The notes under the pieces: generated by a model
The model's database searches: none
The model's input: the letters and a program-made list of their open reading frames with translations, nothing else
What the model was told of the DNA's origin: nothing
Assembly (NCBI GenBank): GCA_029561555.1
Contig: JAKQXH010000044.1
Span: forward strand, 9,691 to 73,690
DNA from: Candidatus Omnitrophota bacterium
GTDB lineage: Bacteria > Omnitrophota > Omnitrophia > Omnitrophales > Omnitrophaceae
Direction: 5' to 3'
DNA length: 64,000 bases
Part shown: positions 5,026 to 35,662 of the stretch, piece by piece
How positions within the stretch are numbered: the first letter of the stretch is position 1
Layout of the letters: each line of letters begins with the position of its first letter
Program-made: the position numbers and the translations under genes

Positions 5026-6510
5026 ATGAGCAAAGTCTTCTTATTGAATCCGCCGATTAGCGCCAGGGAACGGTCCGGGGCGCTGGCTTCAGCCATCGGG
5101 CGAAGCATGCCTTACGGCTTAATCAGCCTTGCCGCCGTTTTGAGAAAATCGGGTTACGAGATCGATTTTTTTGATGCCGCGGCGCAGGGGGTCGGGATTG
5201 AAGAAACCGTGGAGAGGATTCTTTCCGGTTCTCCGGATTATCTCGGCATCAGTACGGTAACGATTTCCGTCGACCGGAGCGGAAAAATCGCGCAAAAAAT
5301 CAGAGCCCGCAACCCGAAGGTAAAAATTCTGGTCGGGGGGGCCCATATGAGTTCGGCGCCGGAAGAGACGATGAAACGTTTCCCGGATTTCGATATCGGC
5401 GTGATCGGAGAAGGGGAGTATTCGATTCTTGAATTGCTGAAAGCCCTTGAGGGAGGTTTGCCGATTAGAGAAATCCCCGGCATCATTTACCGGGAGGGCG
5501 GGAAAACCGTTTTAACCGCCAAAAGGCCCCCGATTATGAATTTGGACGCCCTTCCGATGCCGGCGTGGGATTTGATCCCCGATTTTGCCCAGGTCTATCG
5601 AGCTTCCGCGTCGTCGTATCTTCGTCTGCCGTCGACGACTTTGGTGACGTCCCGGGGATGTTCGGCGCGGTGTATTTTTTGCAACAGCCGGATGCTTTTC
5701 GGCGATTTCCGGAGTTTTAGCGCCGACTACGTGCTTGAGCAGATCCGCCATTTGAAAAGCAAATACCACATCAATGATATCAGCATTTATGACGATAATT
5801 TCCTGATCAGCCGCGACCGGGTGGCGAAAATTTGCGAAGGGATTCTCCGGGAGAAGATCAATATTACCTGGTCCTGCTATTCGCGGGTGGATCAGGGGGA
5901 TTTGGAATTGTTCCGGCTGATGAAAAAAGCGGGCTGCTGGCTGATCAGTTACGGAATCGAAAGCGGCTGCCAGCGGATCCTGAACCTGTTGAACAAGCGG
6001 GTGACTTTGGAACAGATCGAAAAGACGGTGACCCTCACGAAAAAGGCGGGGCTAAGGGTCCGTGGTTTTTTCATGATCGGGCATTTCGGGGAAACTCGCG
6101 AATCGATTCTGCAGACGATTGATTTTATGAGAAAAATCCCTCTCGATGATTTTAATTACACCGTCTTCACGCCGATGCCGGGGACTCCCGCTTATAATAT
6201 CGCGGACCGGTACGGAAAATTCGACCGGACCTGGAGCAAGATGAATTTTCAGTATATGGTGTTCGTTCCGAACGGCTTGACTGCCGATGAGATCGAACGG
6301 TATTCCAGACTGGGCTACCGGAAGTTTTATTTCAGAGCCAGGATTTTAATTCCCTATCTTCTGCTTTTGCTGACGCATCCGACGGGGATTCGAAGACTTT
6401 TTCACGGCCTGCAGGCCGTTTTATTGAGAGTTTTCGCGAAGAAGCATTGCACTCCCGTTGAGGAAGCGTTGGTTGCTTCGGGAAGCGGAGACTTCTGTCC
6501 TCCGGCGTAA
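5026..6510 (+). CDS. Cobalamin-binding (class B) radical SAM protein, paralog 1.
   Basis: N-terminal B12-binding-like Rossmann region (VFLLNPP...GLISLAAVL). Radical-SAM cluster SRGCSARCIFC (CxxxCxxC). About 490 aa, as in B12-rSAM enzymes. Confidence 0.8.
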   Translation: MSKVFLLNPPISARERSGALASAIGRSMPYGLISLAAVLRKSGYEIDFFDAAAQGVGIEETVERILSGSPDYLGISTVTISVDRSGKIAQKIRARNPKVKILVGGAHMSSAPEETMKRFPDFDIGVIGEGEYSILELLKALEGGLPIREIPGIIYREGGKTVLTAKRPPIMNLDALPMPAWDLIPDFAQVYRASASSYLRLPSTTLVTSRGCSARCIFCNSRMLFGDFRSFSADYVLEQIRHLKSKYHINDISIYDDNFLISRDRVAKICEGILREKINITWSCYSRVDQGDLELFRLMKKAGCWLISYGIESGCQRILNLLNKRVTLEQIEKTVTLTKKAGLRVRGFFMIGHFGETRESILQTIDFMRKIPLDDFNYTVFTPMPGTPAYNIADRYGKFDRTWSKMNFQYMVFVPNGLTADEIERYSRLGYRKFYFRARILIPYLLLLLTHPTGIRRLFHGLQAVLLRVFAKKHCTPVEEALVASGSGDFCPPA

Positions 6511-6551
6511 TGTGAATTCGGATTCGTTTCCCGGAAGACGGCAAACTGTTT

Positions 6552-8657
6552 TTATTCCCGGGGAATTGTGATGCCGGAAGGAAATACGGGCTTCCAATGA
6601 AAAACTTTGGATTCGGGGTTTTTGGGTTCGATTAGTTTTATATTTGAGAAAATCAGTTTTTCATTGTGTCTGGCAATCGCGTGAAGCCCGATCCTTCCGT
6701 TAAACTGACAAATTTTCGATATAACTTCCAAGCGGGCGATAATATTTTCATTGTAAAACAAAAAATAATCCGAATCGATTTTTCGGAACGAAAAGCGAAA
6801 ATTTCGTTGAAAGGCCCCGACGGCAAAGCAAATCGCCGGCGAGGTCTCTCCGTTCAAAACAATGCGGGTGTAAAGATAGTAAAGACTGGCGATGAATGCG
6901 GTATAATTTTGAGGGTCGCGGAGCCCTACGATGAGACCTCCGATAAATTCTCCGGTCATCTCGGCTTCGAATAAAGCAGGGGCGTGATTCTCCTGGCTTA
7001 TGAAAATAGGGAACCCTTTGATTTCAACCGGGGATTGTGTTTTAGGGTTTTCGGAAAATACAATGGTGTTTGCGGGCCCCGGGTGACCGAAACTTTCCAC
7101 CGCGTTTTCCTTCTCGGAAATTATTCTGGAGTACCAGAGGCTTTTGTCCGCTTTTTCCGTGAGATAAAGCGGGGTTTTTTCGGAACTTTGGCAGGATTGC
7201 CGGTCCAGCAATCCGTCCGGAATGGCTTTCGCGATTTTTTGAACCGCAGTCCCGCCGTAACAATAATCCGGATTTTTCCGGAAAAAACCCGAGACCTTTT
7301 GTGCGATTTGCGCCGTATTGTTTTGGGGTTTAAAAGCGGGAATGAGAACTTCTTGGATCTGCCGATATCCGTAACCGATTTGAAAGAGGCAGAAAAGGCC
7401 GCAGCAGGAAATGACCAAGGCGAATTTTGAAAATGTCTTTTTGGGGAAAGGTCCGGACAAGACATGAAGGGATCTGAAGACCGTTCCCAGAAGAATAAAA
7501 AACATGAAATTACCCGCATAGTAGTAATAAGTCGCCGAAGTTAAGTATTCGACGCCCCGGTAGGAGGCCAGCCCCAGAAATAGCATCAAAAGGTATGACG
7601 AAGCGAAAATTGCCAATGTGACGGATGCAAAATCTTTCCGCTTCGCATAATTGAAAAATGCGTAAGCGAAATTCACGATGATGCTTAACAGTGAAATGAC
7701 CGTCGAAAACCAGATTTCCCATTTGGGCATCTGAGAAAAATCCCAGACGATTCTTCCTCCGATATCCCAATCCAAGCGGAGATGAACCAGATTGGGCAGG
7801 CCGAATGCCGTTAGAAAAACTCCCGGAAGAGCGTAGATTTCTTTTATTCTCAGAAGATTGCTTTTCAGGAAACCGGGATTTGGATACAGGGTGCTTTCCG
7901 TCGGGGGGGCCGTCAATTGCAGCAGCAGTTCCCGATGGTTTAAAAGCAGGCTCAGGAGAACCGGCGCGAAAAATACCAGGCAGAGTTTCCAATCTGTTCC
8001 GTGGGACGGGGCGCTGTTTTTTTTGCGGTAAAAGCCGAAAAGACTTGTGCAAAGGAAGAAAAACCCGCAAGCGAACATTGTGGCAAAAATGATTTCATGA
8101 AATTGGCAGGCGATTAGGAAAAGGCCGCTTGCGCCGATAGAAGTTTTTGAGGAAAGGTCTTTCTCTCCGTTCCGGCAAAGCAGTCGAAGTCCCAGGCTTG
8201 CAAATAAAATGCTGAACATATAGGGACTGATGTGCCGATAGACAATCATTTCCATTCCCGTGTATTGAAAGAGAAAGGTTCCGGCCAGAAGAAATGAAAA
8301 CCATATCGGAGCGATGCAGCGGATGAGCAGAAATAGGCAGAAGCAGATAAGGGCGTGCAGGATAATGCTCAGCGCGCCGACGGCGTACAGATTGGTCCTG
8401 GAAAAGATGTCCAACAGGGCAAGCGTTCCCAGCGTTCCCGGCTTCATCCAAAGTCCCTTTTCCTGGTAAATATGCCGTGTCCTGGCGTAGTGGAACGAAT
8501 GAATAAAGTAGTCCCAATCGGAGTTAAAGTATTGGCGTTCGATCATGAAGAAATTCTGGTCCGAACGCGGGTAGGCGACAATGCCGTACCGGTAGATCCA
8601 AAAAGAAGCGATCAGGAAGAACAGCAGTATTACCCAATTTTTAGTGAGAATTTTCAT
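6552..8657 (-). CDS. Large polytopic membrane protein with a C-terminal soluble domain (GT-C / YfhO-like architecture), paralog A.
   Basis: At least 12 hydrophobic segments in the N-terminal two thirds, then a ~250-aa hydrophilic domain. Start chosen at MKILTKNWVILLFF (8657). The ORF track extends to 9038, which would overlap the upstream gene by 300 nt; an alternative start at 8726 (MNLPPE) is possible. Confidence 0.5.
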   Translation of the reverse strand: MKILTKNWVILLFFLIASFWIYRYGIVAYPRSDQNFFMIERQYFNSDWDYFIHSFHYARTRHIYQEKGLWMKPGTLGTLALLDIFSRTNLYAVGALSIILHALICFCLFLLIRCIAPIWFSFLLAGTFLFQYTGMEMIVYRHISPYMFSILFASLGLRLLCRNGEKDLSSKTSIGASGLFLIACQFHEIIFATMFACGFFFLCTSLFGFYRKKNSAPSHGTDWKLCLVFFAPVLLSLLLNHRELLLQLTAPPTESTLYPNPGFLKSNLLRIKEIYALPGVFLTAFGLPNLVHLRLDWDIGGRIVWDFSQMPKWEIWFSTVISLLSIIVNFAYAFFNYAKRKDFASVTLAIFASSYLLMLFLGLASYRGVEYLTSATYYYYAGNFMFFILLGTVFRSLHVLSGPFPKKTFSKFALVISCCGLFCLFQIGYGYRQIQEVLIPAFKPQNNTAQIAQKVSGFFRKNPDYCYGGTAVQKIAKAIPDGLLDRQSCQSSEKTPLYLTEKADKSLWYSRIISEKENAVESFGHPGPANTIVFSENPKTQSPVEIKGFPIFISQENHAPALFEAEMTGEFIGGLIVGLRDPQNYTAFIASLYYLYTRIVLNGETSPAICFAVGAFQRNFRFSFRKIDSDYFLFYNENIIARLEVISKICQFNGRIGLHAIARHNEKLIFSNIKLIEPKNPESKVFHWKPVFPSGITIPRE

Positions 8658-8722
8658 GAAAGGATGGACCGGTTTCCGGCTTGAGGGGCAGAAGGCTATG
8701 TCGGGGGTTTCCGGCGGCAAGT

Positions 8723-11080
8723 TCATGATGCGGTCGGGGAAGACGGACGGGTGTTTTTCTCGGGAAATGCTTTTCGATTGAAGGGGAGGGAGATCCTGAT
8801 TTGGAATAGCAACGCCAGGAATATTATTAGAAGCGTAGAAACGTAAATGACGGAAAATATTGCGATCACGTAACTGAAAATCGACATTAAACCGTTCCAG
8901 TATTTGAATTCCACAAGATGGCGCCCTTTTCCTAGCCGGACCGCTTTGAAAGCAAAATACGCTTTTTCGACCGGGACTTCTTTCCCGTCCACAAAGGCGT
9001 GCCAGCCGGGGTGCCATGCGTCGGCGTACACAAGCCAAGAACCTTTTTCCGCCGCAACAGTCACATCCAGGGACAGTTTATTCGCATTGAAATCGAGAAC
9101 GCGTATCGTTCCGTTTGCGGCCGGCGAAGGATCGGCGTTTGTGACGGTAGGCGGCAATCCGTCCCGTTTTGGCAGGAGAACGACTTGATCGATATTTGGA
9201 ATGTTGAGCAGCATCGGCCATGCCGAATTTTCATTGTCAAGATAAACGGCGTTGGGAATCAGCCGAAGTTTTGGGGATTCGATGCCGAGAATTTGCTTTA
9301 ACGCATTGTCACGCCGGAAGTTATAGATTTGTGATAGTTTGAGCGCTCCCGGCGACCACCAATCAGACCGATAGAAGGACCGGGCCGGATCCAGTTGAAT
9401 GAAATTATACATAATGGTGTGAAGGTTTTCGGGAAAGCAAGCTTGTTCCATCAGTTTGGTTGCGCGTATTTGATGATCGGAAACGGGGAGCTGGTATCTT
9501 TCGCTTTGGAAGCGCAGTGCGTTGACTTTGAAGCAACTGAGAGCCGAGTCGAACTCGGGTGCTACTTTCGGTGACTGCGCGTAAATCATCGCCTGAAACG
9601 AGAAAAGATCAAAAACAAAGGCGATCAAAAAAGCGATCGGGAACCACTGTCTTTCGGAGGTTCCGGCGGATCGGCCGGAACCGGATCGAAGCGGGAAACG
9701 CGCGAGTAAAAATGGGAGAACCAATGCTCCTGCGTAAACAAAAAGTCTGCCGATGAAAACAAAATGCCAAATTTTGATCAGTTCCGGGGTGAGAACAAAG
9801 TCGGAACGGGCCATGAGATTTTTCATGGGGAATTGTGTTGAGAGGGTTCCGAGTAATATCCAGATTGCAATAACCAAACCTGCCGAAAGAATTTTGTTGC
9901 GGGAAGACCAGAATTTTTCCCAGCCGAAACCGGCCGCGATAATGATCAAAACCTTTACAAGACCGTAAATCAGGCCAATATGACGGTAGTAGGACATGCC
10001 GGGAAGATGATAAACCATTTTGGCAAACAGTCCTCCCTGAGACAGGGCGATCAGAGCCGCAATGCAGGCGGTGATGCCCCAGAAGAGGAGATCCCTTTCT
10101 TTTAGAAGCGCCCAGGCGAAAAATAACAGCGGCAGAATTCCGATGTAAATAACGTTATCTAAAGGGCTGGCAATCAACAGGCAGGTGGGCCATCCGAAAA
10201 GGAATGAACGGATTACGTTAGTTAAACTCGGATTGCCTCCGTAGGTCAGAAAAGTATTCAAATCGGCCGTCTTTTTCAGCGAATCCCGCCCGGCTACGTT
10301 AAAGGAAACGTTCGCGAGAGAGTGCGTTTGATAATAGATCACAATGCCGGCCATCAATAAAAAGACGAAAAACGCGAGGTAATTGCCGGGGGATTTCCGG
10401 AAAAGAGATTTCCAAGCCGTCCGTTTTTGGGCGGAGAGGAAGGCGCTTAAGATCAAGAACAGATATGCCCAAAGGATCACGGCATAAACGCCGTCCAGGA
10501 ACCATGCAATGAAGGTGATGCCGCAGAGCCAGAGAAACTTCGGGTTACTTTCCTCGAAGAACCGGAGAAGGAGATAAATGGCGAGAGGGAGGAGGTAGAA
10601 AATTCTCAGGTCGAGAAAATATTGCGAATACCAAACCGTGCTTCCGATCGAGGCGAGGCACGTAAAAAGGACGGAGCTTTTTCTCCTGAAAAGCCGTGTT
10701 GAAAGGAGATACACCCCGGTTAGGAATAAGATCTGGTCAATGACAATGCTCCATTTGTAAAGCGATAAGACATCGGAAATGCGGCATAATTTTCCCAATA
10801 AAACCGCGAAATGGCTTGTTGCCGCTTGCATGAGGAAAAGAAATTCACTTGAGCCTCCAAAATTACCGTACGGAAGCCAGCCGGCAATCTGGCCGTTATG
10901 GAAGAATTCGTTATAGAAATGGAAGAAAATATGGAAGCCCACCAGGGTGTCGACCATCGGAATGAAGTTTTTTGCCAAGTAAAGGAGATTGACTCCTATC
11001 AGGACAATAAGCGAAACCAACAGGACGGGATTGATTCTTATTTTTAACAAGAGATTGCTTTGCTTTCGGAAGTGTTTCAA
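8723..11080 (-). CDS. YfhO-family-like polytopic membrane protein (GT-C-like), paralog B.
   Basis: 785 aa. Many N-terminal TM helices. C-terminal periplasmic-type domain ending in WHPGWHAFVDGKEVPV...LGKGRHLVEFKY followed by a final TM helix (IFSYVIAIFSVIYVSTLLIIFLALL). This topology and C-terminal motif are typical of YfhO-type proteins. Confidence 0.6.
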   Translation of the reverse strand: MKHFRKQSNLLLKIRINPVLLVSLIVLIGVNLLYLAKNFIPMVDTLVGFHIFFHFYNEFFHNGQIAGWLPYGNFGGSSEFLFLMQAATSHFAVLLGKLCRISDVLSLYKWSIVIDQILFLTGVYLLSTRLFRRKSSVLFTCLASIGSTVWYSQYFLDLRIFYLLPLAIYLLLRFFEESNPKFLWLCGITFIAWFLDGVYAVILWAYLFLILSAFLSAQKRTAWKSLFRKSPGNYLAFFVFLLMAGIVIYYQTHSLANVSFNVAGRDSLKKTADLNTFLTYGGNPSLTNVIRSFLFGWPTCLLIASPLDNVIYIGILPLLFFAWALLKERDLLFWGITACIAALIALSQGGLFAKMVYHLPGMSYYRHIGLIYGLVKVLIIIAAGFGWEKFWSSRNKILSAGLVIAIWILLGTLSTQFPMKNLMARSDFVLTPELIKIWHFVFIGRLFVYAGALVLPFLLARFPLRSGSGRSAGTSERQWFPIAFLIAFVFDLFSFQAMIYAQSPKVAPEFDSALSCFKVNALRFQSERYQLPVSDHQIRATKLMEQACFPENLHTIMYNFIQLDPARSFYRSDWWSPGALKLSQIYNFRRDNALKQILGIESPKLRLIPNAVYLDNENSAWPMLLNIPNIDQVVLLPKRDGLPPTVTNADPSPAANGTIRVLDFNANKLSLDVTVAAEKGSWLVYADAWHPGWHAFVDGKEVPVEKAYFAFKAVRLGKGRHLVEFKYWNGLMSIFSYVIAIFSVIYVSTLLIIFLALLFQIRISLPFNRKAFPEKNTRPSSPTAS

Positions 11081-11178
11081 GTTTTTAAATATTTGAGAAG
11101 CCGGGAAGCCTCTCCCCTCCCTTATTCCTCAAGAATACGCGTAATCTTATATTTCATTCAATAGGTTGAATCGGAAAA

Positions 11179-11208
11179 ATCGAGGGTTCCTCAGGGGCAA
11201 CCCTCGAT
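11179..11208 (-). terminator. Intrinsic terminator-like hairpin at the 3' end of the SPASM rSAM gene; the stop codon lies in the loop.
   Basis: Perfect 10-bp inverted repeat ATCGAGGGTT ... AACCCTCGAT. On the minus-strand transcript it is followed by ATTTTTCC. Confidence 0.45.
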
Positions 11209-12360
11209 TGACATAGGGGAAACTCCCCGAGGGCTCAAATATTCGGCCACGTAGGCGTCAAATTCAGCCGGGTCGAATTTCTTGCTTTTCAGCCCCTCAT
11301 CCACTGTAATTTTGAAATAATTGCGGAGAACGGAAGGCGTCAGGCTGAACATTAAATTGAGATCGTTTACGCACATCAGATAACAGGCCTTGCAGCCGTG
11401 ATCCAGGGAATGCCGGACGGCTTTCCGCATCCCGGTTTCTCTGAAATCCCACCCGTCAAATTTCCCGATGAATTGGATGCACGGATAAACTTTCCCGTCG
11501 CAATCGATGAATATCATGTGTCTCCCGCCGAAGCATTTGATGTATTCAAATTCCGGCGGATTCTTGGAGAGGATGACTTTCCGGGTGTAATCGGGCCAAT
11601 CCAGAATTTTTCGCATGACCGTCTCCGAAAAAAGGATGGGGTAGCCGCGTTTTTTATAGGCAATCAGTTTTTTGACCGCTTCCCGGTACTCGTCTACGGA
11701 GATGTCCAGGTTCTGATAATCCGCGTCGCTTTTTAAGCTCCTTTGAACGAAAAAGCCGAATTCGGTGTAAATATGAAAGCGTTTCGCGAATTCCAGGATT
11801 CCGTCTAAGGCGGCCAGATTGTTCCGGTTGACGGTGGTGTAAGTGTGAACATTCACCCCCGCTTTTTTTGCGGCTTTGATGGCTTTCATAATGGTCTCAA
11901 ATGTGCCGCTTCCGCGGTTTGAATCATTGCTGGGTTTGTTCCCGTCCCAACTGATGCAAATCGTTTTGATTTTCTTCACGGTTTCGATTTTTTTCTCAAC
12001 CAAACTTCCGTTGGTGCTGATCCCCAAAGTGATCCCCAAAGCATTGGCTTTGTCTACGATCCGGTCAATGTCTTCCCTCAGCAAGGGTTCCCCTCCGCTG
12101 AGCTGCAGAAAAGACATCCCCATCCGGGCCAATTCCTCTATGGCCGCGAGAGCTTGTTCCGTGGTGATCGGATTTTTCTCCCTTTTTCTGTTTTTGTAAT
12201 CACCGTAACAATAGGCGCAATCGAAATTGCACTGAGGGGTCAGGGAGAAAGTGACGACAAGCGGGAACGGTTTGTTGAGGGCTTTGGAATAGAGCAATCT
12301 TGAGAAGAAACGGGCCCTGGAGATCAATGTCGCGATGGGTGCTTGTTTTTGGCTGTTCAT
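11191..12360 (-). CDS. Radical SAM protein with a C-terminal SPASM/twitch Cys-rich domain, paralog 1.
   Basis: CNFDCAYC (CxxxCxxC) about 45 aa from the N-terminus. C-terminal Cys cluster CFGG...CDGKVYPC...GCKACYLMC. Paralogous to the ORFs at 18525, 23689 and 24743. Confidence 0.8.
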   Translation of the reverse strand: MNSQKQAPIATLISRARFFSRLLYSKALNKPFPLVVTFSLTPQCNFDCAYCYGDYKNRKREKNPITTEQALAAIEELARMGMSFLQLSGGEPLLREDIDRIVDKANALGITLGISTNGSLVEKKIETVKKIKTICISWDGNKPSNDSNRGSGTFETIMKAIKAAKKAGVNVHTYTTVNRNNLAALDGILEFAKRFHIYTEFGFFVQRSLKSDADYQNLDISVDEYREAVKKLIAYKKRGYPILFSETVMRKILDWPDYTRKVILSKNPPEFEYIKCFGGRHMIFIDCDGKVYPCIQFIGKFDGWDFRETGMRKAVRHSLDHGCKACYLMCVNDLNLMFSLTPSVLRNYFKITVDEGLKSKKFDPAEFDAYVAEYLSPRGVSPMSIEGCP

Positions 12361-12379
12361 CGGGTCCTCATTTTTAACT

Positions 12380-13834: not shown

Positions 13835-14104
13835 GAATTGCGCGTGATGAAGTGTCTCACCCTCCCCCGGAAAACGTTTGTAAAAATACCTTGATTATAA
13901 AGATAGAAAACCGGTCCCGGCGGTTTTACCGCAGCGTCCTACGATTAGTATAAAATAACTTCGGGAGTTGTTCCAATTAAGAATTCCGGAGGAGAATGGG
14001 GCCCGGTGGAAAGATCGGGAAGGCGGCCGTCTGTGGACGGAAGAGATTTGAGGGATAACGCTTGCGGTAAATACCAAAACGATATTAGAATCTGCTATTA
14101 AAAT

Positions 14105-24720: not shown

Positions 24721-24742
24721 GCGGTTCCTCTGTTTTAGTGCG

Positions 24743-25780: not shown

Positions 25781-25789
25781 GAAGAAGCG

Positions 25790-28299: not shown

Positions 28300-29276
28300 T
28301 CTTTTGGAAATGGATTCCTGCCGGATATTGACCGAAACAGGTGAAAGAGACAGTTCCATATTCCGGAAAAGATCCCCATGACGCAGACGATATCGCGGAC
28401 GAGAATGACACCGGTGCTTTTTGCGAGCGGGAGGCGGTTTTGTCTGAGGAAAAGCAGGAAGCTCCGGTTGAGGATGACGATTGCGGCCATGCCGGCCAGG
28501 GAGAGAAGGGGATGTTTCCACAGCGCGGCCAGCGTGATCATCGTCAGGACGGTTTCCAGATAAATCCCCTGTCCCTGGTGGGTCTTGGAGAAAATCATGC
28601 CAGGATGGCAGTAATAGGACCAGACCGTGTCTCTCGCGAAGCGGAACTGCTGTTTGAGATATCCTCGCAGGGAATTTTTAAAATGATGAAGGACCCCGTT
28701 GTCTTTGTCCCAGTAAATTTCGTATTTTTGGCTGATTTTGAAAGAAAGACGGAGGTCCTCGCAGACATACCGTTCCGGGAATTTTCCGCATTCGTAGAAA
28801 ACATCCCGGGTACAGGCAAAATTATTCGCAACCAGCGTTTTAACGAAAGCGGGAGTGTTTTTCCTTCTGTGCGCCAATTCCAGATGGGCGAACCGCTCGA
28901 TAAAAGAATTCCCTTCGGAGCCGGAGTACCCTCCGCCGACGCATCGGACCCGAAAGGATTCTATGTCACGCAGGATGTTCGCGAGCCAGTTTTCCGGGAG
29001 TATGACATCCGCGTCCGTGAAGGCGAGAATTTCCCCGGATGAGGCATCGGCCCCCCGGTTTCTCGCGGCCCCCACGCCTTGATTTTTTTCGCTGCGTGTG
29101 ACTTTTGCGTAACGGGCCGCGATTGATGCGGTCTCGTCCGTGGAGGCGTCATCCGCGACAATGATTTCAAAATCGAGGAAAGTCTGCCGGATGAGCGATT
29201 CAAGGCATTTGTCGATGAATCCTGCCGCGTTATAGGCCGGAATAACGACGGATATTTTCGGCATGATGGTCGTCAA
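28296..29276 (-). CDS. GT2 glycosyltransferase with a C-terminal membrane domain.
   Basis: PKISVVIPAYN...DDASTDET...DADV motifs typical of the GT-A fold. Three or more hydrophobic helices in the last 80 aa. An alternative start at 29264 (MPKIS) is possible. Confidence 0.7.
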   Translation of the reverse strand: MTTIMPKISVVIPAYNAAGFIDKCLESLIRQTFLDFEIIVADDASTDETASIAARYAKVTRSEKNQGVGAARNRGADASSGEILAFTDADVILPENWLANILRDIESFRVRCVGGGYSGSEGNSFIERFAHLELAHRRKNTPAFVKTLVANNFACTRDVFYECGKFPERYVCEDLRLSFKISQKYEIYWDKDNGVLHHFKNSLRGYLKQQFRFARDTVWSYYCHPGMIFSKTHQGQGIYLETVLTMITLAALWKHPLLSLAGMAAIVILNRSFLLFLRQNRLPLAKSTGVILVRDIVCVMGIFSGIWNCLFHLFRSISGRNPFPKE

Positions 29277-30204
29277 ATCCGATGCAGCCGTTCAGAATGT
29301 ACGGCGGGCGGCCCTTGACTTCGTCGAAGATCCGGATGATGTACTCGCCGAGAAATCCCATGACCGTCAGCTGCACGCCTCCCAGCAGGGTGATCCCGAC
29401 CACGATGGAAGCCCAGCCGGGGATGCGGTGCTGGAAATTGAAGATGGTGTTTGCGATCAGATAGACGGAATAGAGAAGGCTTGAGATCGAAACGAAAAAC
29501 CCGATCAGGATCGAAATCTTCAGGGGGATTTCGGAAAACGAAATAATCCCGTCCATGGCGAGGTGCAGGAGCTTGAAGAAGGTGTATTTGGGCTTTCCCG
29601 CGAAGCGTTTGTCCCGGTCATAACGGATTCCCGTCTGCCTGAATCCGACCCAGCTCCTCAATCCTCTGATAAAACGGTTTCGTTCGGGGATTGCGTTGAT
29701 TAAGTTGGCGACTTTCCGGTCAACGAGGCAGCAGTCTCCGCTATCGAGGGGGATCTCTGTTTTGGAAATGGCTTTCAGCAGGCGGTAGTACGTTTTGTAG
29801 AGGATACGCATCAGAAGCGGGTCCTTGCGCGTCGCGCGGACCGCGTAAACGACCTGATAACCTTCGCGCCATTTTTCGAGAAACCGGGGAATGATTTCCG
29901 GCGGGTCCTGAAGGTCTCCGTCGAGAATGATCACGGCGTCTCCCCGCGAAAACTGAAGCCCGGCGGTAATGGCCATTTGATGCCCGAAATTTCTCGAAAA
30001 GGAGAGAATTTTGACTTTAGGGTCAGAACGGTTGAACCCCTGAAGAATCTCAAGAGACCGGTCCCGGCTTGCGTCATTGATGAAAATAATTTCGTAATCC
30101 AGATCGAGGGCCGCCAATACGTTTCGAGTCCGTTCGTAGAGGTGGGGAAGGACTTCTTCCTCGTTGTAAATCGGGAAAATAACCGATAATAAATTTCCGC
30201 TCAT
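29230..30204 (-). CDS. GT2 polyprenyl-phosphate sugar synthase (GtrB/CsbB/ArnC-like) with C-terminal TM helices.
   Basis: LSVIFPIYNEE...IFINDASRDRS...DGDLQDPPE. C-terminal hydrophobic hairpin. Paralogous to the GT2 at 19599..20558. Confidence 0.75.
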   Translation of the reverse strand: MSGNLLSVIFPIYNEEEVLPHLYERTRNVLAALDLDYEIIFINDASRDRSLEILQGFNRSDPKVKILSFSRNFGHQMAITAGLQFSRGDAVIILDGDLQDPPEIIPRFLEKWREGYQVVYAVRATRKDPLLMRILYKTYYRLLKAISKTEIPLDSGDCCLVDRKVANLINAIPERNRFIRGLRSWVGFRQTGIRYDRDKRFAGKPKYTFFKLLHLAMDGIISFSEIPLKISILIGFFVSISSLLYSVYLIANTIFNFQHRIPGWASIVVGITLLGGVQLTVMGFLGEYIIRIFDEVKGRPPYILNGCIGFDDHHAENIRRYSGL

Positions 30205-30300
30205 TGACGATGGCTCCGATTCTCGAGCCGCAGTATAGCCTACTCTTTTTGTTTTGAATAGTCCAAATTGGCCCGCTTCAAATTGTTTTTTTGGGGGAAA

Positions 30301-31715
30301 TCAACGTTGGGAATCGATTAAATACCGGAGAATAATTCTGGCTTTTTTGGCGAAATCCGCCCGTGAAACGTAAAGGCGCATCATTTTGAGGGCGAAGAAT
30401 AATTCATAGACCGTTTTGAGAACAAAACGGGGCAGTGCGAATAAAGCTCTTCGAGCCGGAACCGCGGAATACAGAAAGGGGAAATTGACGAAAAGGGGGA
30501 AAAGACGCATGAGTTTTTGAATGGCTTTATTTTCCCTGGGGGACATTTCTAAAATGGATTGTGTGAAAAAATCGTCCGGGATTTTCTTTTCCGCATTGGG
30601 AACGTAATGTCCGTGAGCGATTGCATACTCGGTCAGCGCCAGGCCGGGAAAGGGGACGAAAATATTCGCGAGCCCCATGGACGGCTTGGCTTTGATATTC
30701 AGTTCCAGTGTCTTCAGCATTTGCCCGAAGCTTTCGCCGGGGAGCCCGATAATATTTCCGATCCGGTACCGGATTTTGTATTGGGTGAGCAATTCGGCTG
30801 TTTTGAAAATTTGCGAGTCCGACATTTGGCGTTTGAGGACCGTATTTCGCATGAATTCGTCTCCCGATTCGATGCTCCAGTTCACGACAATGCATCCGCT
30901 GTCGCGCAGGGCCCGGGCGATTTCCTCGTCGACCAGATTGGCCCGGATATTGCAGGTGTAGGGGAGTCCGATTTCTTTCGGGAAACGTTCGCAAAATTCA
31001 GGAACCATTTCTTGTCGATAATGAACGTGTCGTCGTTGAATACGACCGTCAGCAGGGGATATTTTCCCCGAACCAGCCGGATTTCGTCGAGAAGGTAGCC
31101 GACACTTTTTTTCCGTATTACGGATCCGCAAGTCTTGAAAATTTCCCGGAATTTGTGATTGAAACAATAGGTGCAGTCATAAGGGCATCCCCGGCCTGAC
31201 AGGAACTGTTTGGACGGCATATTCCGTAGAGTGGGATCCACGCGGTAGACGATGTCCCGGTCCGGAAAAGGCAGCCGGTCCAATTCGGCGAAAGGATGAA
31301 ATTCCGACGGGCCGGGGCTTCCTTTGGGAGCGATATTTTTACGGGACCTGAAACCGCTTTGGATGTAATCGAGAAGCGCGATTTCTCCTTCCCCGGCGCA
31401 GAAAGCGTCAATCGTGGAATCCTTGATGCAGTCCCAGTCGAAAGTGGGGCCCGGCCCTCCGATCAGAGAGTTGGCTTTCAGCGTTTGCTTGGCGATTTTA
31501 TCGAATTCCCTGAACGAGGGGACGGCAAAGGAAAAAGCGGAATACAAAAGCAGGTCCGGCGCGAGGCTCCGGATGGTCTGAAGCGCTTTTGCTTGACGGG
31601 GCCCCCGAACAAAATGGACTTCAATGCCGTTCTGCTTCAGGACGCTGGAGAGAGAATAAATCCCGTGGCGGTCGTAAAAATGGCTGAGGGAATCAAAAAA
31701 AACGACGGTGGTCAA
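30301..31715 (-). pseudogene. Cobalamin-binding radical SAM paralog 7, disrupted by a single -1 frameshift near 31003 (or an assembly error).
   Basis: ORFs 30882..31715 (N-terminal B12-like domain plus GRGCPYDCTYC) and 30301..31167 (radical-SAM C-terminal half) overlap in different frames. Together they align end-to-end with intact paralogs (...DKKW | PEFCERFPKEIGL...). Confidence 0.65.
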
Positions 31716-31736
31716 TATCGGGCTCCTTGCATGATG

Positions 31737-34157
31737 TTAATAATTTACCGGCACGTCCCTGACAAATTTATTGTAACCGGTTTTAGGGCGGAGGTAAATT
31801 CCCGAGAGGAGCCAGAGGATGCCGAAGAGCCAGAAGAGGGAATTGATTTCGAAAAAGGCGTACAGGGCGGATAATACGGGAGAGTGAAACGTAAAATGAA
31901 TAAGATTCGGACCTTTTGAAAGCGGGACGGCCTTGTAAGCGAGGTTGGCTTTGAATACGGTCACGGGTTTACCGTTTACAGTGGCTTTCCAGCGGGGATG
32001 CCAGGTGTCGCTGTAAAGCAGCCAGGCGGATTTCAGGTCCGGCGGCATATTGACGGCGAGATTCAGGCGGTTCGCGTCAAAAAACAGGATCCGGTAAGGT
32101 CCCGTCAGGCGGGCGTTGAGGGAAACCGGTTTTTCGGGAGCCCATTCAATGGTCCCCGGAATATTCTTCGGGCTTCGGCCCGGGCGATGCAGGAACGGGA
32201 TGTCGCCGTTATAGTCGGGACGGTTCATCTGAGCGGATGTCCATAAATCCTGCTCGGCAAAATAAATATCGGGGAAGACATACGCGGTTTCGAAGAATTG
32301 AATCTTGTCTTCCGTCAGCCCCGCTATTTTCCCGGAGGCGGGATGGGACAGCGGGAAATCGAGTTTTTTGAGTTCTTCAAAACCTGCCGGTGGAGTCGAA
32401 GTGTCGCGGAGGGACTGTCCCCAGTAAGTTTTCATGTATGAATCAAGCGGCAGGAGCCAGTGATCGGTCCGGTATGCATTGCCGATTTCATCCTGAAACG
32501 TGAAGGACTGAAGCGAGAAATAAGCCGCGCCATAGGAGACCCGTTTTTGGCAGAAGAAGGTGCGCAATTCGCCGGAATTCGGCGAGGCGATGCGCCGCGT
32601 CGCGTAAGGCATGGGCTGGAAAGCAGTGATTTTGGCTTCTTTTTGGTTAAGAGAGACGGTCCTGAGGCAGGTTTCCGAAAATTTGTATTCGCCCAGGTCC
32701 CAAAGATGGAGAGCCAGGGCTATAAAGAGAATGACCCGGGAATATTTTTTAAATTGAGGAGCCGCGCCCGAAATAACTAAAACGCCTGAAATGATCGCAA
32801 GAATAGCCGCGCTGACTGCCCGGGCGGTTATCACCCTGGGCAGGAAGGTCCAGGCGAATTTCGAAAGGCCGTTTGGAACAATAATGGCGAGAAGGACCCT
32901 GAGAGTTTCATGGTTTTTGAGAAGGATGAGGGCGTTGGCCGAAACGGCAAAGAGAACCGCTCCGACAAAGAAAAAGCGGAATTTGGATTTTTTGATTCTG
33001 TCCATAGCGGCGGCATGCGTGAACATCCCGTCCAGTCCCGCGCCCGCCAGGAGACAGAGAAAATATTTCGCGAAAAGAGTAACCAGCGAGAGATGCCGGA
33101 AGAATTTCATTCCGGGCCAGGCGTAATAAAAAAATACGGCCAGCGGCGTGCCCATGGCAAAGAGAGAGATTAAAACCGCCGCGAGGAGGAAATGGGCGTT
33201 TTTCCTGCGAAGCGTGAATAGTCCCAGCAGGGCGAGTGAGATCCCGAGAATTCCGATGTAGAGATTGTAGTCGACGCAGGGGGAAATTCTCAGAAACGAT
33301 TCCATCCAGCAGCCGGGGTTGAGCGTTCCTCCGTATTCGAGGAAATACTTTAAGGGAACGGTTCCGTCGGGATTTCGTCCGAGATAATATTTGGTCAGGA
33401 GGCCGGTTTCGGTCCGGAGCAAGAGCAGGACGGCGAACAATGAAAATAAAACAGCGGCAATAGCGGCAACGGAGGCCATGCTGAATTTAAGAGAAAAGAT
33501 CTTTTTGCGAATCTCACGGGGATTGCAAACGGTATAGGAGGAGAAATAGATAGCGATTACCAACGATAGGACGGGCGGATAGTAGGGTAGATTTGCGAGC
33601 ATTTGAACCGCAAATAAATTTCCCGCAAGAGCCAGATATCTCCATTGTCCCTGTTCGAGAAATCGATGGAGGAGGTCGAGCATGAGAGGCATTGCGTAGT
33701 AGAAATGAAAATTAAACCAGACCTGTCCCGCCCAAATGCAGGAACCCATGACGGACACGGCGGTGAAAAAAGCGGCAGCCGGCGAAAGGAATCTTCTCGC
33801 AAAGAGCCATGTTCCAACCAATAGCAGAAGTTCGTCAAAGAAAATCCCGGCATTGAAAATCTGAATAAAATTAATTCCTTTCAGGAGTGGGGTCGCCAGC
33901 AGCAGGACATTTTGCAGAATTCCGGCTTGAATGGCGTACCACCAGGTCGCGACCGTTCCGTGAGTCATGAAGGGCATCCATTGAGGGATTTCACCGTACA
34001 TGACGGCGTGATTCAGGAAGTAATACTGAAGGGTAAAGTATTCGAATGTGTCATGTCCGTTAGGGATACGGTTTTTAAAGTTCAGGAAAAGAATGAGACT
34101 GAATTCCAGGCAGAGGATTAAAAAGAAAAGAATGCGGTCGAGCCGGGCTGTTTTCAA
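31737..34157 (-). CDS. YfhO-family-like polytopic membrane protein (GT-C-like), paralog D.
   Basis: 806 aa. Many TM helices. C-terminal domain ending in WLLYSDTWHPRWKATVNGKPVTVFKANLAYKAVPLSKGPNLIHFTF plus a terminal TM helix. TTG start overlapping the stop of the upstream B12-rSAM (TTGA). Confidence 0.6.
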   Translation of the reverse strand: MKTARLDRILFFLILCLEFSLILFLNFKNRIPNGHDTFEYFTLQYYFLNHAVMYGEIPQWMPFMTHGTVATWWYAIQAGILQNVLLLATPLLKGINFIQIFNAGIFFDELLLLVGTWLFARRFLSPAAAFFTAVSVMGSCIWAGQVWFNFHFYYAMPLMLDLLHRFLEQGQWRYLALAGNLFAVQMLANLPYYPPVLSLVIAIYFSSYTVCNPREIRKKIFSLKFSMASVAAIAAVLFSLFAVLLLLRTETGLLTKYYLGRNPDGTVPLKYFLEYGGTLNPGCWMESFLRISPCVDYNLYIGILGISLALLGLFTLRRKNAHFLLAAVLISLFAMGTPLAVFFYYAWPGMKFFRHLSLVTLFAKYFLCLLAGAGLDGMFTHAAAMDRIKKSKFRFFFVGAVLFAVSANALILLKNHETLRVLLAIIVPNGLSKFAWTFLPRVITARAVSAAILAIISGVLVISGAAPQFKKYSRVILFIALALHLWDLGEYKFSETCLRTVSLNQKEAKITAFQPMPYATRRIASPNSGELRTFFCQKRVSYGAAYFSLQSFTFQDEIGNAYRTDHWLLPLDSYMKTYWGQSLRDTSTPPAGFEELKKLDFPLSHPASGKIAGLTEDKIQFFETAYVFPDIYFAEQDLWTSAQMNRPDYNGDIPFLHRPGRSPKNIPGTIEWAPEKPVSLNARLTGPYRILFFDANRLNLAVNMPPDLKSAWLLYSDTWHPRWKATVNGKPVTVFKANLAYKAVPLSKGPNLIHFTFHSPVLSALYAFFEINSLFWLFGILWLLSGIYLRPKTGYNKFVRDVPVNY

Positions 34158-35662
34158 GCGAATTTCCTCGTCAGGGTATGGGATGCCATTTCGCGAATGT
34201 GGGTTTCCGTTTCAGGGCCGAATTTTCTCCGGATCATCTCGAGGTATTCCGGGTTTTTGAAATAAGTCTGGAATGCCCGGTCGCGGAAGCGGACGACTTC
34301 AGCGCTTGAAAGATATTTCGTCGGAAGAGGCAGCATGTCTTCCGAATGCTGGGAGTATCCGCCCCAGGTTTTGGGAAGAGGCCAGCCTTCTTTCAGCGCT
34401 TGCCGGTACAGATCGGAGCCCGGATAGGCCATGGTGCAGTAAAAATTGGCGAATTCACAGTTTAATTCCGTTGCCAGGTCGAGCGTTTCCTGCATGGATC
34501 GGAGATCGTCTTCCGGCAGGCCGAAAATATAGTTTCCGATGACGTGAATTCCGGTCGCGTTTACTTCCCGCATGGCCTTGAAAATATCTTCCTGGACAAA
34601 TCCTTTTTGAACGTCGTCCCGCACCCGCGAACTGCCGGCTTCGATTCCGAACGCAAGCCAGTTCATGCCCGCGCGCTTCATTTTTTCGCACAATCCCTTC
34701 CGGAGCGTGTCGACGCGGGCGTACGCCCAAAGATTGAGATCGTATCCCCGTCCGATGATCAGGTCGCAAATCCCTTCGACATGCTTTTCGTTCAGCACAA
34801 ACATTTCATCGGCGATTTTGATGTTTCGGACGCCGTATCGGGAAACGAGAAGATCGATTTGCGTGATGACCCATTGCGGGCTCCAGTAACGGTAGGTGTT
34901 GACGTCCTCCCGGTTTCCGGAAAGCTTTTCTCCGCTTTTGAAAGGCGCGTGAATGCAGCAGAAACTGCAGCGGTAGGGACATCCCAACGTGGTGTAAAGG
35001 GCCGCGTAGGGTTCGCGTTTCAGATGACCGAAGCAATGCCAGTTGTGGGCGCGGTATCGGTTCATGGGGAGAAGGTCCCAAGCCATTGCCGGGATGCCTT
35101 CGTCCAAATTTTTTACGAGCGGCGCCGGGGGATTTGAGTCAATCACGCCGTTGTTGCGGTACCACAATCCCCGTACTTTACCGAGATCACCGGGACGGTC
35201 GGATTTGAGCGCTTCGATGAGATCCGTCAGTGTGTACAGGCATTCCCCGTCACAGACAAAATCCGCGTTTTCATCCCGAAGCGTTCTCTCGGGCAGCGCG
35301 GCGACGTGCCCGCCGGCGAGCAGAATTTTCATCTCCGGCGTTCTTTGTTTGATTGCCGAACAGGCGGCCGAGGCAGCCGGCATATTTTGAGTGGAAGCGG
35401 AAGGCTGATGACCGTAGACAATGACAGCGGCAAGCAGAGGATTGATTTCGGAGACCCGCCGGGCTGTTTCATCGGGGCCGAGCCCTTCGGCGTTTGCGTC
35501 TAGGATTTCGATTGAAAACCCCTTGTTTCGGGCAAATCCCGCCATGATCCCGATCCATACGGGGGGTTCTATGGCGGCGAGACTTCTTCCAAGGGTTTGA
35601 TAGACCTGTGACCGGTTTCCGGGATTGATCAGCAGGAGGTCCGGTTTTCGGGAAGAGGTCAT
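34154..35662 (-). CDS. Cobalamin-binding (class B) radical SAM protein, paralog 8.
   Basis: LLLINPGN... B12-like N-terminus. TLGCPYRCSFC motif. 502 aa. Confidence 0.8.
   Translation of the reverse strand: MTSSRKPDLLLINPGNRSQVYQTLGRSLAAIEPPVWIGIMAGFARNKGFSIEILDANAEGLGPDETARRVSEINPLLAAVIVYGHQPSASTQNMPAASAACSAIKQRTPEMKILLAGGHVAALPERTLRDENADFVCDGECLYTLTDLIEALKSDRPGDLGKVRGLWYRNNGVIDSNPPAPLVKNLDEGIPAMAWDLLPMNRYRAHNWHCFGHLKREPYAALYTTLGCPYRCSFCCIHAPFKSGEKLSGNREDVNTYRYWSPQWVITQIDLLVSRYGVRNIKIADEMFVLNEKHVEGICDLIIGRGYDLNLWAYARVDTLRKGLCEKMKRAGMNWLAFGIEAGSSRVRDDVQKGFVQEDIFKAMREVNATGIHVIGNYIFGLPEDDLRSMQETLDLATELNCEFANFYCTMAYPGSDLYRQALKEGWPLPKTWGGYSQHSEDMLPLPTKYLSSAEVVRFRDRAFQTYFKNPEYLEMIRRKFGPETETHIREMASHTLTRKFA

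Follow-up and report, generated by a model that had tools for sequence, protein, structure and literature searches.

A radical-SAM-dense locus of an Omnitrophota bacterium and its probable role in cell-envelope glycan biosynthesis

What does a bacterium make with a dozen radical S-adenosylmethionine (rSAM) enzymes encoded almost side by side? The question is posed by a 64-kb stretch of DNA from a Candidatus Omnitrophota bacterium (contig JAKQXH010000044.1, positions 9,691 to 73,690; called the window below), in which the interval from 5026 to 35662 holds genes for eight B12-binding and four SPASM/twitch-type rSAM proteins, three family 2 glycosyltransferases (GT2s), and four large polytopic membrane proteins, as judged by an open-reading-frame (ORF) listing of the window and Pfam and NCBIfam scans of its genes. 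We propose that this locus is probably an island for the biosynthesis of a cell-envelope glycan or glycoconjugate, in which heptose-type sugars would be tailored by radical chemistry, loaded onto polyprenyl phosphate, and transferred by glycosyltransferases of the GT-C fold. The rSAM density, 12 of 22 genes, is far above chance for any plausible background (binomial probability 6e-19 to 1e-10 under an assumed background of 1–5%).

A first-pass annotation of the window had placed the limits of the system at 5026 and 35662. Both limits fall on ORF boundaries, yet functionally the unit continues to ~47.6 kb. The minus-strand block runs on unbroken from 35662 to 42569, the whole cluster spans ~43 kb, and its rSAM total is 13 when a MiaB-like gene at 46448–47647 is counted. 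The locus and a GDP-heptose-type sugar-nucleotide cassette share one direction of transcription as a single block, and the same sequence is present on an independent metagenome contig of the Joint Genome Institute (JGI; digester sample 3300009696). Besides the DPM-synthase-like GT2_4 described further below, the cassette consists of the following genes, which include enzymes dependent on thiamine diphosphate (ThDP) or on pyridoxal/pyridoxamine phosphate (PLP/PMP) and members of the short-chain dehydrogenase/reductase (SDR) family.

34154–35662, minus strand: B12_8, class-B-type rSAM, cassette member from a large, highly conserved family
35667–36383, minus strand: sugar-1-phosphate nucleotidylyl (guanylyl) transferase, ManC/HddC-like (PF00483)
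36392–37417, minus strand: GHMP sugar kinase, heptose-kinase-like (HddA/WcbL type)
37436–38365, minus strand: SDR_2, GDP-L-fucose-synthase-like epimerase/4-reductase
38344–39528, minus strand: ColD-type PLP/PMP-dependent sugar 3-dehydratase, DegT family
39557–40591, minus strand: ThDP-dependent E1 beta (PF02779 and PF02780)
40588–41580, minus strand: ThDP-dependent E1 alpha (PF00676, 229 bits)
41634–42569, minus strand: SDR_3, close homologue of PDB 6vo6

Several of these assignments follow from close structural relatives. The GHMP kinase finds its best PDB matches among D-glycero-D-manno-heptose kinases (3k85, 4usk, and 4n3o), and scores 136 bits against the HddA model, below its cut-off of 600; the guanylyltransferase-like protein is likewise below cut-off against both the mannose-1-phosphate guanylyltransferase model (148 bits) and HddC (125 vs 300 bits). 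SDR_3 matches 6vo6, which we take to be Campylobacter jejuni Cj1427, with an E value of 8.6e-112 and ~56% identity over residues 3–310. The best PDB match of the DegT-family protein is ColD (2gms, E 2e-45), and its His187, in the motif SFSFYFGHQ, aligns with ColD His188, which replaces the Schiff-base lysine. SDR_2 scores 195 bits against the Fcl model and matches GDP-fucose synthases of the PDB with an E value of 1e-71. The E1 beta and E1 alpha proteins score 310 vs 321 and 306 vs 394 bits, respectively, against the pyruvate dehydrogenase E1 models and cut-offs, and no E2 or E3 partner is encoded in the window.

Precedents exist for much of the chemistry that such a gene set would perform. 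With C. jejuni enzymes, GDP-heptose is converted in vitro to the 4-keto and then the 3-deoxy-4-keto sugar by Cj1427 and a PLP-dependent 3-dehydratase (PMC10680097). ThDP-dependent carboligation onto 4-keto-3,6-dideoxy sugars is established in yersiniose-type pathways (PMC9306805), and the stand-alone E1 alpha/beta pairs AviB1/AviB2 and Pau11/Pau12 have been proposed to add a C4 acetyl branch from pyruvate (PMC4753412). Erwiniose and caryophyllose were considered as products of a heptose receiving a two-carbon branch and radical methylation, and were rejected: both sugars have been explained through enzymes of the YerE type that use a CDP-hexose as substrate and longer keto acids as donors (PMC9306805).

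The cassette is not peculiar to this genome. We annotated 68 genomic loci (numbered with the prefix L) by their similarity to window genes. At 45–69% identity, the cassette with its B12_8 gene is present in eight loci that represent at least five phyla, and it recurs in Planctomycetota, Acidobacteriota, Cyanobacteriota, and Zixibacteria. B12_8 adjoins the same cassette genes in L020, L028, L040, L072, L074, L075, and L076, and its family holds more than 120 clusters at 66–86% identity. A cyanobacterium, an acidobacterium, and a Zixibacteria metagenome-assembled genome (MAG) share SDR_3, the nucleotidyltransferase, the GHMP kinase, an SDR, E1 alpha, E1 beta, the DegT protein, and the B12 rSAM. 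The cyanobacterial cassette (L074) also holds SIS (GmhA-like) and HAD (GmhB-like) genes, so that the known route to GDP-D-glycero-D-manno-heptose would be complete there; in the Zixibacteria cassette (L076), the nucleotidyltransferase is fused to a HAD domain. Genes for GT1, GT2, and GT4 glycosyltransferases, rml genes, and Wzx genes surround the cyanobacterial and acidobacterial cassettes, an O-antigen or extracellular-polysaccharide (EPS) type of setting that lacks YfhO. The cassette comes in two flavours, with DegT and Fcl-like proteins 48–61% identical to those of the window in L020 and L075 and 29–35% identical in L028, L074, and L076; the lower identity suggests a different, perhaps aminotransferase, step in the latter three.

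The second part of the proposal concerns transfer of the sugar across and beyond the cytoplasmic membrane, for which the locus encodes four candidate donor-forming GT2s.

19599–20558, minus strand: GT2_1, PgfS/ArnC/GtrB-like polyprenyl-phosphate glycosyltransferase (PF00535; PgfS 240 and ArnC 126 bits, both below cut-off)
28296–29276, minus strand: GT2_2, GT2 with C-terminal transmembrane (TM) helices (PF00535, 119 bits; TM segments at residues 251–314; MftF-like, 98 bits, below cut-off)
29230–30204, minus strand: GT2_3, PgfS/ArnC-like polyprenyl-phosphate glycosyltransferase (PgfS 271 and ArnC 179 bits, both below cut-off)
42831–43562, minus strand: GT2_4, soluble dolichol-phosphate-hexose-synthase-like GT2 (AglJ and dolichol-phosphate-hexose transferase models, below cut-off)

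All four resemble polyprenyl-phosphate glycosyltransferases, at scores below the equivalog cut-offs. GT2_1, which has two C-terminal TM helices, and GT2_3, which also ends in TM helices, are 40% identical. The three GT2 genes that the first-pass annotation had counted in the interval are confirmed by PF00535, two of them as PgfS/ArnC-like proteins with C-terminal TM helices. GT2_4 is separated from the minus-strand block by a 260-bp gap, and its nearest PDB entries are the dolichol-phosphate mannose (DPM) synthase 5mlz, ArnC, and GtrB.

The candidate transferases are the membrane proteins.

6552–8726, minus strand: MEM_1, predicted GT-C-fold glycosyltransferase of an unnamed family with a C-terminal lectin-like or carbohydrate-binding-module-like beta-sandwich (fold search on a model)
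8723–11080, minus strand: MEM_2, YfhO-like GT-C membrane protein (PF09586, 37 vs 28.5 bits, C-terminal 70 positions only)
14105–17014, plus strand: MEM_3, orphan 969-residue polytopic membrane protein (~14–16 hydrophobic segments, no Pfam match)
31737–34157, minus strand: MEM_4, YfhO-like GT-C glycosyltransferase (PF09586, 23.8 bits, below cut-off; many homologues carry PF09586; GT-C fold in the model)

Profile or fold comparisons support assignment of three of these four proteins as GT-C enzymes. The features expected of this fold are present: a polytopic N-terminal module with the GT-C core, and an acidic residue that is conserved in extracytoplasmic loop 1. Pmt2, Pmt4, STT3B, and PglB are the structures that best match the two modelled proteins, MEM_1 and MEM_4, with ArnT, AftA, AftB, AftD, and PimE as further GT-C fold matches. 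MEM_2 aligns with the MEM_4 family with an hhalign probability of 100% over 681 columns. MEM_1 is placed in GT-C by fold search only; 32 members of its family lack a Pfam match, and profile comparison did not connect it with the YfhO-like family. Its likely start is ATG at 8726 rather than TTG at 9038, and its family is small, with 157 representatives among 1.84 billion proteins. MEM_3 returned only itself from 5.8 billion proteins and gave weak local hhalign matches (84% over 143 TM columns vs the MEM_1 family, 34% vs the YfhO-like C-terminus), and is possibly a GT-C enzyme too; its gene is convergent with the long minus-strand operon. The first-pass description of four YfhO-like proteins therefore stands for MEM_2 and MEM_4 but not for MEM_1, which belongs to another GT-C family, or for the orphan MEM_3.

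Gene order in other genomes ties these proteins together. The MEM_4 homologues found all come from uncultured bacteria (Smithella and other Desulfobacterota, Omnitrophota, Planctomycetota, Acidobacteriota, and Verrucomicrobiota). In L003, L006, L008, L022, L028, and L066, the gene immediately upstream of the MEM_4 homologue encodes a GT2_4 orthologue (68–76% identity), and a 75% orthologue lies inside the L076 cassette. B12_8 orthologues stand beside a YfhO-like gene at 59–63% identity in Planctomycetota and an unclassified bacterium and at 49% in a deltaproteobacterium. A B12 rSAM gene lies no more than 10 kb from the MEM_4 homologue in every Desulfobacterota locus and in a minority of the other loci. 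YfhO-like genes of the MEM_4 type are often in tandem, with two to five paralogues. Such arrays comprise three to five YfhO-like GT-C paralogues in Smithella (L003, 10001–19809), where an rSAM–E1 alpha–E1 beta–GT2 block precedes the array, and in a Desulfosudaceae genome (L002, 4782–12394), where a B12 rSAM gene lies directly upstream.

The remaining rSAM genes account for most of the density of the locus. The other seven B12-type genes are as follows.

5026–6510, plus strand: B12_1, class-B-type rSAM (PF02310 74.9 bits, PF04055 83.6 bits)
12380–13834, minus strand: B12_2, class-B-type rSAM (PF02310 88.7 bits, PF04055 88.3 bits)
17066–18514, minus strand: B12_3, class-B-type rSAM (PF02310 51.5 bits, PF04055 66.3 bits; motif CPFSCSFC)
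20621–22192, minus strand: B12_4, class-B-type rSAM (PF02310 65.2 bits, PF04055 81.2 bits)
22196–23620, minus strand: B12_5, class-B-type rSAM (PF02310 69.3 bits, PF04055 79.3 bits)
25790–27307, minus strand: B12_6, class-B-type rSAM with a divergent B12 domain (PF04055 72.6 bits; PF02310 29.0 bits vs a cut-off of 32.1)
30301–31715, minus strand: B12_7, class-B-type rSAM, frameshifted (two ORFs; 1-nt deletion near 31004–31008)

The earlier count of eight B12-binding rSAM proteins, one frameshifted, agrees with our scans: all eight have a CxxxCxxC motif and a PF04055 domain, and the PF02310 cut-off is passed by seven, including the N-terminal half of B12_7, the exception being B12_6. B12_1 has the motif CSARCIFC at residue 212, HpnJ as its best NCBIfam match (206 bits vs a cut-off of 578), and AprD4, 9ccb, OxsB, and TokK as nearest PDB entries; the best NCBIfam match of B12_2 is the Sden_1168 P-methyltransferase family (203 vs 575 bits). 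Pairwise identity among the B12 rSAMs is only 22–32%, which indicates old paralogues or independent acquisitions rather than recent amplification. Apart from B12_7 and B12_8, the six others find a best match of 39% in the annotated loci and thus look like lineage-specific accretions. Both halves of B12_7 are 53% identical to an intact orthologue in L022, the frame changes at 30990–31014, and the split is also present on the independent JGI contig. Intact orthologues with 51–54% identity occur in three Desulfobacterota loci (L002, L003, and L022). In the Desulfosudaceae and Smithella MAGs (L002, 12582–15769; L003, 2267–5812), the intact orthologue adjoins a PMT_2-type (ArnT-like) GT-C gene; no PMT_2 gene is present in the window, and loss of this partner might explain the decay of B12_7. 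Rfam and tRNA scans of the window revealed no cobalamin riboswitch or other RNA.

Four genes encode SPASM/twitch-type proteins.

11191–12360, minus strand: SP_1, rSAM with a SPASM-like C-terminal Cys cluster (PF04055 93.7 bits; SPASM 17.8 bits, below cut-off; 6 C-terminal Cys)
18525–19586, minus strand: SP_2, rSAM with a clear SPASM/twitch domain (PF13186, 44.4 vs 21.5 bits)
23689–24720, minus strand: SP_3, rSAM with a SPASM-like Cys cluster (PF04055 98.7 bits; SPASM 18.0 bits, below cut-off)
24743–25780, minus strand: SP_4, rSAM with a twitch-like four-Cys C-terminal cluster (PF04055 101.5 bits; no SPASM match; Cys 270, 288, 317, and 320)

These proteins are 343–389 residues long, and each has four to six C-terminal cysteines. 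The C-terminal Cys cluster noted in the first-pass annotation is thus present in all four, but the PF13186 cut-off (21.5 bits) is passed by SP_2 only, with SP_1 and SP_3 at ~18 bits and SP_4 without a match. More generally, the Pfam families that annotation had named as a check bore out the B12/rSAM (PF02310, PF04055) and GT2 (PF00535) assignments, and the SPASM (PF13186) and YfhO (PF09586) assignments in part. SP_1, SP_3, and SP_4 are 34–43% identical to one another (SP_1 to SP_3 43%, SP_4 to SP_3 36%). The sole PDB relative of SP_2 is BtrN, and the nearest PDB entries of SP_3 are the cytosylglucuronate decarboxylase BlsE and MoaA. A metagenome scan with the SP_1/SP_3/SP_4 alignment found no close orthologue (best 36% by tblastn, 40% in an ORF comparison), and this module looks lineage-specific. 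Other loci from the same scan mix SPASM-type and B12 rSAMs with GT2, DegT, and AsnB-like genes. The rSAM-dense metagenome contigs found elsewhere are L082, L083, L084, L085, and L087; L085 has ~9 SPASM-type rSAM ORFs and two DegT genes within 21 kb, and L087 combines three GT2s with three B12 rSAMs and two SPASM-like rSAMs, and further encodes a methyltransferase, a PLP-dependent decarboxylase, and an AsnB-like protein.

How might these parts work together? First, the heptose-kinase-like GHMP kinase and the guanylyltransferase-like enzyme would form a GDP-activated heptose-type sugar, which the Cj1427-like dehydrogenase would oxidize at C4 and the ColD-type dehydratase would deoxygenate at C3. 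Close homology points to these reactions, and we infer all later chemistry. Second, the E1 alpha/beta pair may add a two-carbon branch to the 4-keto-3-deoxy sugar, by analogy with the proposal for AviB1/AviB2, and the GDP-fucose-synthase-like SDR_2 may reduce or epimerize the branched product, again by analogy. From conserved synteny only, we infer that B12_8 acts on a sugar intermediate of the cassette, which it would alter most likely by C-methylation of an unactivated carbon, the commonest class B chemistry, or else by radical rearrangement or dehydration. The nearest solved relatives of B12_8 are AprD4 and OxsB, and those of the locus rSAMs in general (AprD4, OxsB, BlsE, BtrN) act on sugars or nucleosides, which is weak but consistent support for sugar substrates. 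Third, the four GT2s would load the cassette sugar and other sugars onto polyprenyl phosphate, as family resemblance and conserved gene order suggest; the DPM-synthase-like GT2_4 would move the cassette sugar to polyprenyl phosphate, and a YfhO-like GT-C would transfer it in the periplasm. GT2_1, GT2_2, and GT2_3 could form parallel donor–transferase pairs with the other GT-Cs, giving four GT2s for three or four GT-Cs. Fourth, after flipping, the two YfhO-like GT-Cs, the lectin-bearing MEM_1, and possibly MEM_3 would transfer sugars to a periplasmic acceptor, which might be lipopolysaccharide (LPS), another polysaccharide, or protein. Finally, the other seven B12-type and the four SPASM/twitch rSAMs may, from their position, tailor nucleotide-linked or lipid-linked sugars in the cytoplasm.

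The first-pass annotation had arrived at an rSAM-tailored envelope glycan assembled through polyprenyl-phosphate sugars and GT-C enzymes. The cassette, the conserved B12_8, the GT2s, and three GT-Cs strengthen that idea, and a number of observations weigh against it. No GtrA/ArnEF-type flippase, Wzx, Wzy, ligase, or ABC exporter is encoded in the window; the small GtrA/ArnEF type was absent from the scanned ORFs, the gaps are too small for one, and it is possibly encoded elsewhere. GmhA isomerase and GmhB phosphatase genes are likewise missing from the window, and that entry 6vo6 is Cj1427 is a presumption. For 11 of the 12 rSAMs, a sugar substrate is suggested by gene neighbourhood only, and one of these, B12_7, is frameshifted. 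In Omnitrophota relatives, the YfhO-like gene often occurs with ordinary SAM methyltransferases and no rSAM, so the rSAMs are not integral to the GT-C system; one such relative has these methyltransferases where B12 rSAMs would otherwise stand. Class-B-like enzymes include the non-methylases AprD4, OxsB, BchE, and HpnJ; AprD4 shares their architecture yet is a dehydratase (NCBIfam NF033070 description), so the chemistry cannot be read from domain architecture. Curated NCBIfam cut-offs were our yardstick for closeness to characterised class B families (HpnJ, HpnR, BchE, PhpK, BzaD, Mmp10-type, ApyD, KedN5, TsrM, and ladderane-type models), and no rSAM of the locus reaches one, the HpnJ match of B12_1 being the best; the reaction type is therefore a guess. 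The organism is uncultured.

The same sugar chemistry could serve a different acceptor. If the GT-Cs acted like Pmt, PglB, or PgfS/PgfM, the product would be a glycosylated protein such as an S-layer protein, pilin, or adhesin. Both modelled membrane proteins do match protein glycosyltransferases best (Pmt2, Pmt4, STT3B, and PglB), GT2_1 and GT2_3 score best against PgfS of Streptococcus mutans protein glycosylation, and GT2_4 scores best against AglJ of S-layer N-glycosylation. The GT-C fold does not discriminate between acceptors, however, as ArnT, AftA, AftB, and AftD match too; no conserved candidate acceptor protein is encoded beside the locus, and the tandem runs of MEM_4 paralogues in relatives, with as many as five members, fit stepwise assembly of a glycan better. 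We regard protein glycosylation as unlikely.

That the product is a natural product for secretion, a bioactive oligosaccharide or phosphoglycolipid comparable to orthosomycins, aminoglycosides, or moenomycin, seems to us decidedly improbable. Periplasm-facing GT-Cs and polyprenyl-phosphate GT2s typify the assembly of envelope glycans, a cyanobacterium and an acidobacterium have the core cassette in clusters of the O-antigen/EPS type, and 60–69% conservation across phyla fits a primary envelope function; family scans of the window, moreover, revealed no exporter, regulator, or resistance gene. This must be set against a density of tailoring enzymes typical of secondary metabolism and the fact that the closest characterised analogues come from antibiotic pathways (AprD4, BtrN, BlsE, OxsB, AviB1/AviB2, and Pau11/Pau12).

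Tailoring of a membrane lipid had been offered as an alternative in the first-pass annotation and fared poorly. The rSAMs would in that case act on a hopanoid side chain or on membrane-spanning or branched tetraethers, like HpnJ/HpnR, GrsA/B, Hbs/Hgm, Tes, or Mss, and the glycosyltransferases would add head groups. HpnJ is the best NCBIfam match for most B12 paralogues, and a neighbouring gene is HpnA-like.

27304–28299, minus strand: SDR_1, HpnA-like NAD-dependent sugar epimerase/reductase (PF01370; TIGR03466, 229 vs 368 bits)

In addition, the AhbD-like SPASM protein Hbs and the B12 rSAM Hgm modify tetraethers, and Hbs homologues are reported in 12 Omnitrophota genomes (bioRxiv 10.1101/2023.10.20.563219). 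The hopanoid and tetraether models nevertheless score far below cut-off here (HpnJ 100–206 vs 578 bits, Tes 24.8 vs 450), the SPASM proteins of the locus, at 343–389 residues, are not of the extended Hbs type (bioRxiv 10.1101/2023.10.20.563219), and the Pfam and NCBIfam scans found no shc, hpnH, tes, mss, or plasmalogen genes, and hence no lipid-core genes, in the window. The sole rSAM with a conserved context, B12_8, belongs to the sugar-nucleotide cassette, and we consider lipid tailoring very improbable indeed. A ribosomally synthesized and post-translationally modified peptide (RiPP) with an overlooked precursor, suggested by sub-threshold rSAM matches to the peptide maturases ApyD, rSAM_ocin_1, PapB, and StsB, is hardly credible and essentially excluded, as these scores are all far below cut-off, the nine intergenic gaps contain no plausible small ORF for a precursor peptide, just as the first-pass annotation had maintained, and family scans of the window detected no leader peptidase, LanT-type transporter, or RiPP recognition element (RRE) domain.

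Envelope-glycan biosynthesis, the reading that we favour, has known counterparts for many of its parts. Three-component extracytoplasmic systems include GtrB/GtrA/GtrV, CsbB/GtcA/YfhO, ArnC/ArnEF/ArnT, PgfS/PgfM, and pentofuranose systems (PMC11127046). In these systems a GT2 makes a polyprenyl-phosphate monosaccharide that a GT-C transfers outside the cytoplasmic membrane, and the locus correspondingly has the PgfS/ArnC-like GT2_1 and GT2_3, the DPM-synthase-like GT2_4, and two YfhO-like proteins. It differs in having four GT2s and three or four GT-Cs, one of them a lectin-bearing member of an unnamed family, in lacking a small flippase gene, and in interleaving 12 rSAM genes, a feature without parallel among described systems of this kind. 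The YfhO enzymes so far characterised act on teichoic acids in Firmicutes, whereas the host here is Gram-negative (Omnitrophota); kdsA, kdsD, lpxL-like, lptC/A, and lptB genes 10 kb downstream of the locus point to a Gram-negative envelope with LPS.

The C. jejuni capsular GDP-heptose pathways use the Cj1427 C4-dehydrogenase, a PLP-dependent 3-dehydratase, C3/C5 epimerases, and C4 reductases (PMC10680097). The locus shares genes of the kinase, guanylyltransferase, 6vo6, ColD, and GDP-fucose-synthase types with them, but adds E1 alpha/beta and a B12-type rSAM and has no cupin-type C3/C5 epimerase; its product would pass to a polyprenyl-phosphate GT2 and a GT-C, that of C. jejuni to capsule-polymerizing glycosyltransferases. 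ThDP-dependent sugar branching (YerE/ErwE for yersiniose and erwiniose, AviB1/AviB2, Pau11/Pau12) likewise places a 4-keto-3-deoxy nucleotide sugar beside a ThDP enzyme, and the avilamycin and paulomycin clusters, like the locus, have E1 alpha/beta without E2/E3. The substrate here is likely a GDP-heptose derivative rather than a CDP- or TDP-hexose, and the setting an envelope locus of uncultured anaerobes rather than an antibiotic cluster. GenK and Fom3 are class B sugar-acting rSAMs of antibiotic pathways, and to our knowledge rSAM tailoring of sugars is known almost only from such pathways. The antibiotic-pathway enzymes AprD4, OxsB, BtrN, and BlsE have the same domain architecture as the locus rSAMs and are their nearest solved relatives, but identity is limited to the core fold (E 1e-26 at best) and does not amount to family membership; up to 12 rSAMs stand in one envelope-type locus here, vs one to three per secondary-metabolite cluster. 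In mycobacterial periplasmic glycan assembly by Ppm1 and PimE/Mpt/Emb/Aft, as proposed here, a soluble DPM-synthase-like GT2 feeds several paralogous GT-Cs (PMC3485146, PMC12041525). AftA, AftB, AftD, and PimE are among the fold matches of the locus membrane proteins, but there is no sequence-level relation beyond the fold, the phylum and envelope are different, and the rSAMs have no counterpart.

The building blocks are thus known in kind: polyprenyl-phosphate-sugar/GT-C glycosylation, GDP-heptose modification as in C. jejuni, ThDP-dependent branching, and sugar-acting rSAMs. The first-pass annotation held that the composition as a whole matches no described system, and literature searches combining rSAM with YfhO, glycosyltransferase, heptose, or polysaccharide found none, which is not proof. 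In the literature we found no description of a cassette joining GDP-heptose activation, ColD-type deoxygenation, an E1 pair, and a B12-type rSAM, of its coupling to a DPM-synthase-like GT2 and a YfhO-like GT-C, of an envelope-glycan locus with 13 rSAMs, or of the lectin-bearing GT-C family. Tentatively, and with rather less than even confidence, we suggest that the cassette represents a widespread, undescribed class of envelope sugars, derived from heptose, 3-deoxygenated, branched by a ThDP-dependent E1, and C-methylated or rearranged by a dedicated B12 rSAM, which in this Omnitrophota lineage would have been expanded into a glycan that GT-Cs assemble entirely outside the membrane and whose polyprenyl-phosphate sugars are each remodelled by their own set of rSAMs. 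If so, class B and SPASM radical chemistry would here, for the first time, be a mainstay of how a primary cell-surface glycan is made. That a GDP-heptose/3-deoxygenation/ThDP/B12-rSAM cassette is conserved in five or more phyla would be a sign of higher-carbon surface sugars that form a new family. For enzymology, the B12_8 family would be a large source of class B enzymes whose substrate is tractable and predictable, and the window defines a new GT-C family in which a domain resembles a lectin. The surfaces of anaerobic candidate phyla may be modified by chemistry that escapes standard annotation of glycan genes; Omnitrophota are suspected to be host-dependent, and a surface glycan is a plausible determinant of such interactions.

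On the right, the locus is followed by a divergent group.

44105–47647, plus strand: accessory genes for a GT47/exostosin-like protein, a PF03407 nucleotide-sugar transferase, a class I methyltransferase, and a MiaB-like rSAM (Pfam, NCBIfam)

Whether this group belongs to the unit is uncertain, because none of its genes lies beside MEM_4 or B12_8 homologues elsewhere. The two glycosyltransferase-like genes at 44105–45767 (plus strand) are of mostly eukaryotic families (exostosin/GT47 C-terminal region and PF03407) and have no NCBIfam match. The MiaB/RimO-like rSAM at 46448–47647 (plus strand) has UPF0004 and the rSAM core, scores 214 bits against a cut-off of 251, and lacks a TRAM domain; its 3' end is overlapped by ~200 nt by a 377-residue ORF without a family (47442–48575, plus strand). 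A 103-residue ORF at 43736–44047 (plus strand), with a typical signal peptide (MYKKCILTGLLLLFFLSTTPSPAVA/DD) and no Pfam match, sits in the divergent promoter region between GT2_4 (42831–43562) and the GT47-like gene, and is called as a gene on the JGI contig too. Just upstream of the locus lies a 1172-residue ORF (43–3561, plus strand) with one hydrophobic segment and no Pfam domain. The left edge is occupied by a gene for L-2-hydroxyglutarate oxidase (3627–4841, minus strand; 350 bits vs an NCBIfam cut-off of 299), which is not conserved beside the cassette in other loci. Cj1427-type C4-dehydrogenases regenerate NAD+ by reducing alpha-ketoglutarate to L-2-hydroxyglutarate (PMC10680097), and the oxidase could recycle this by-product of a Cj1427-type enzyme.

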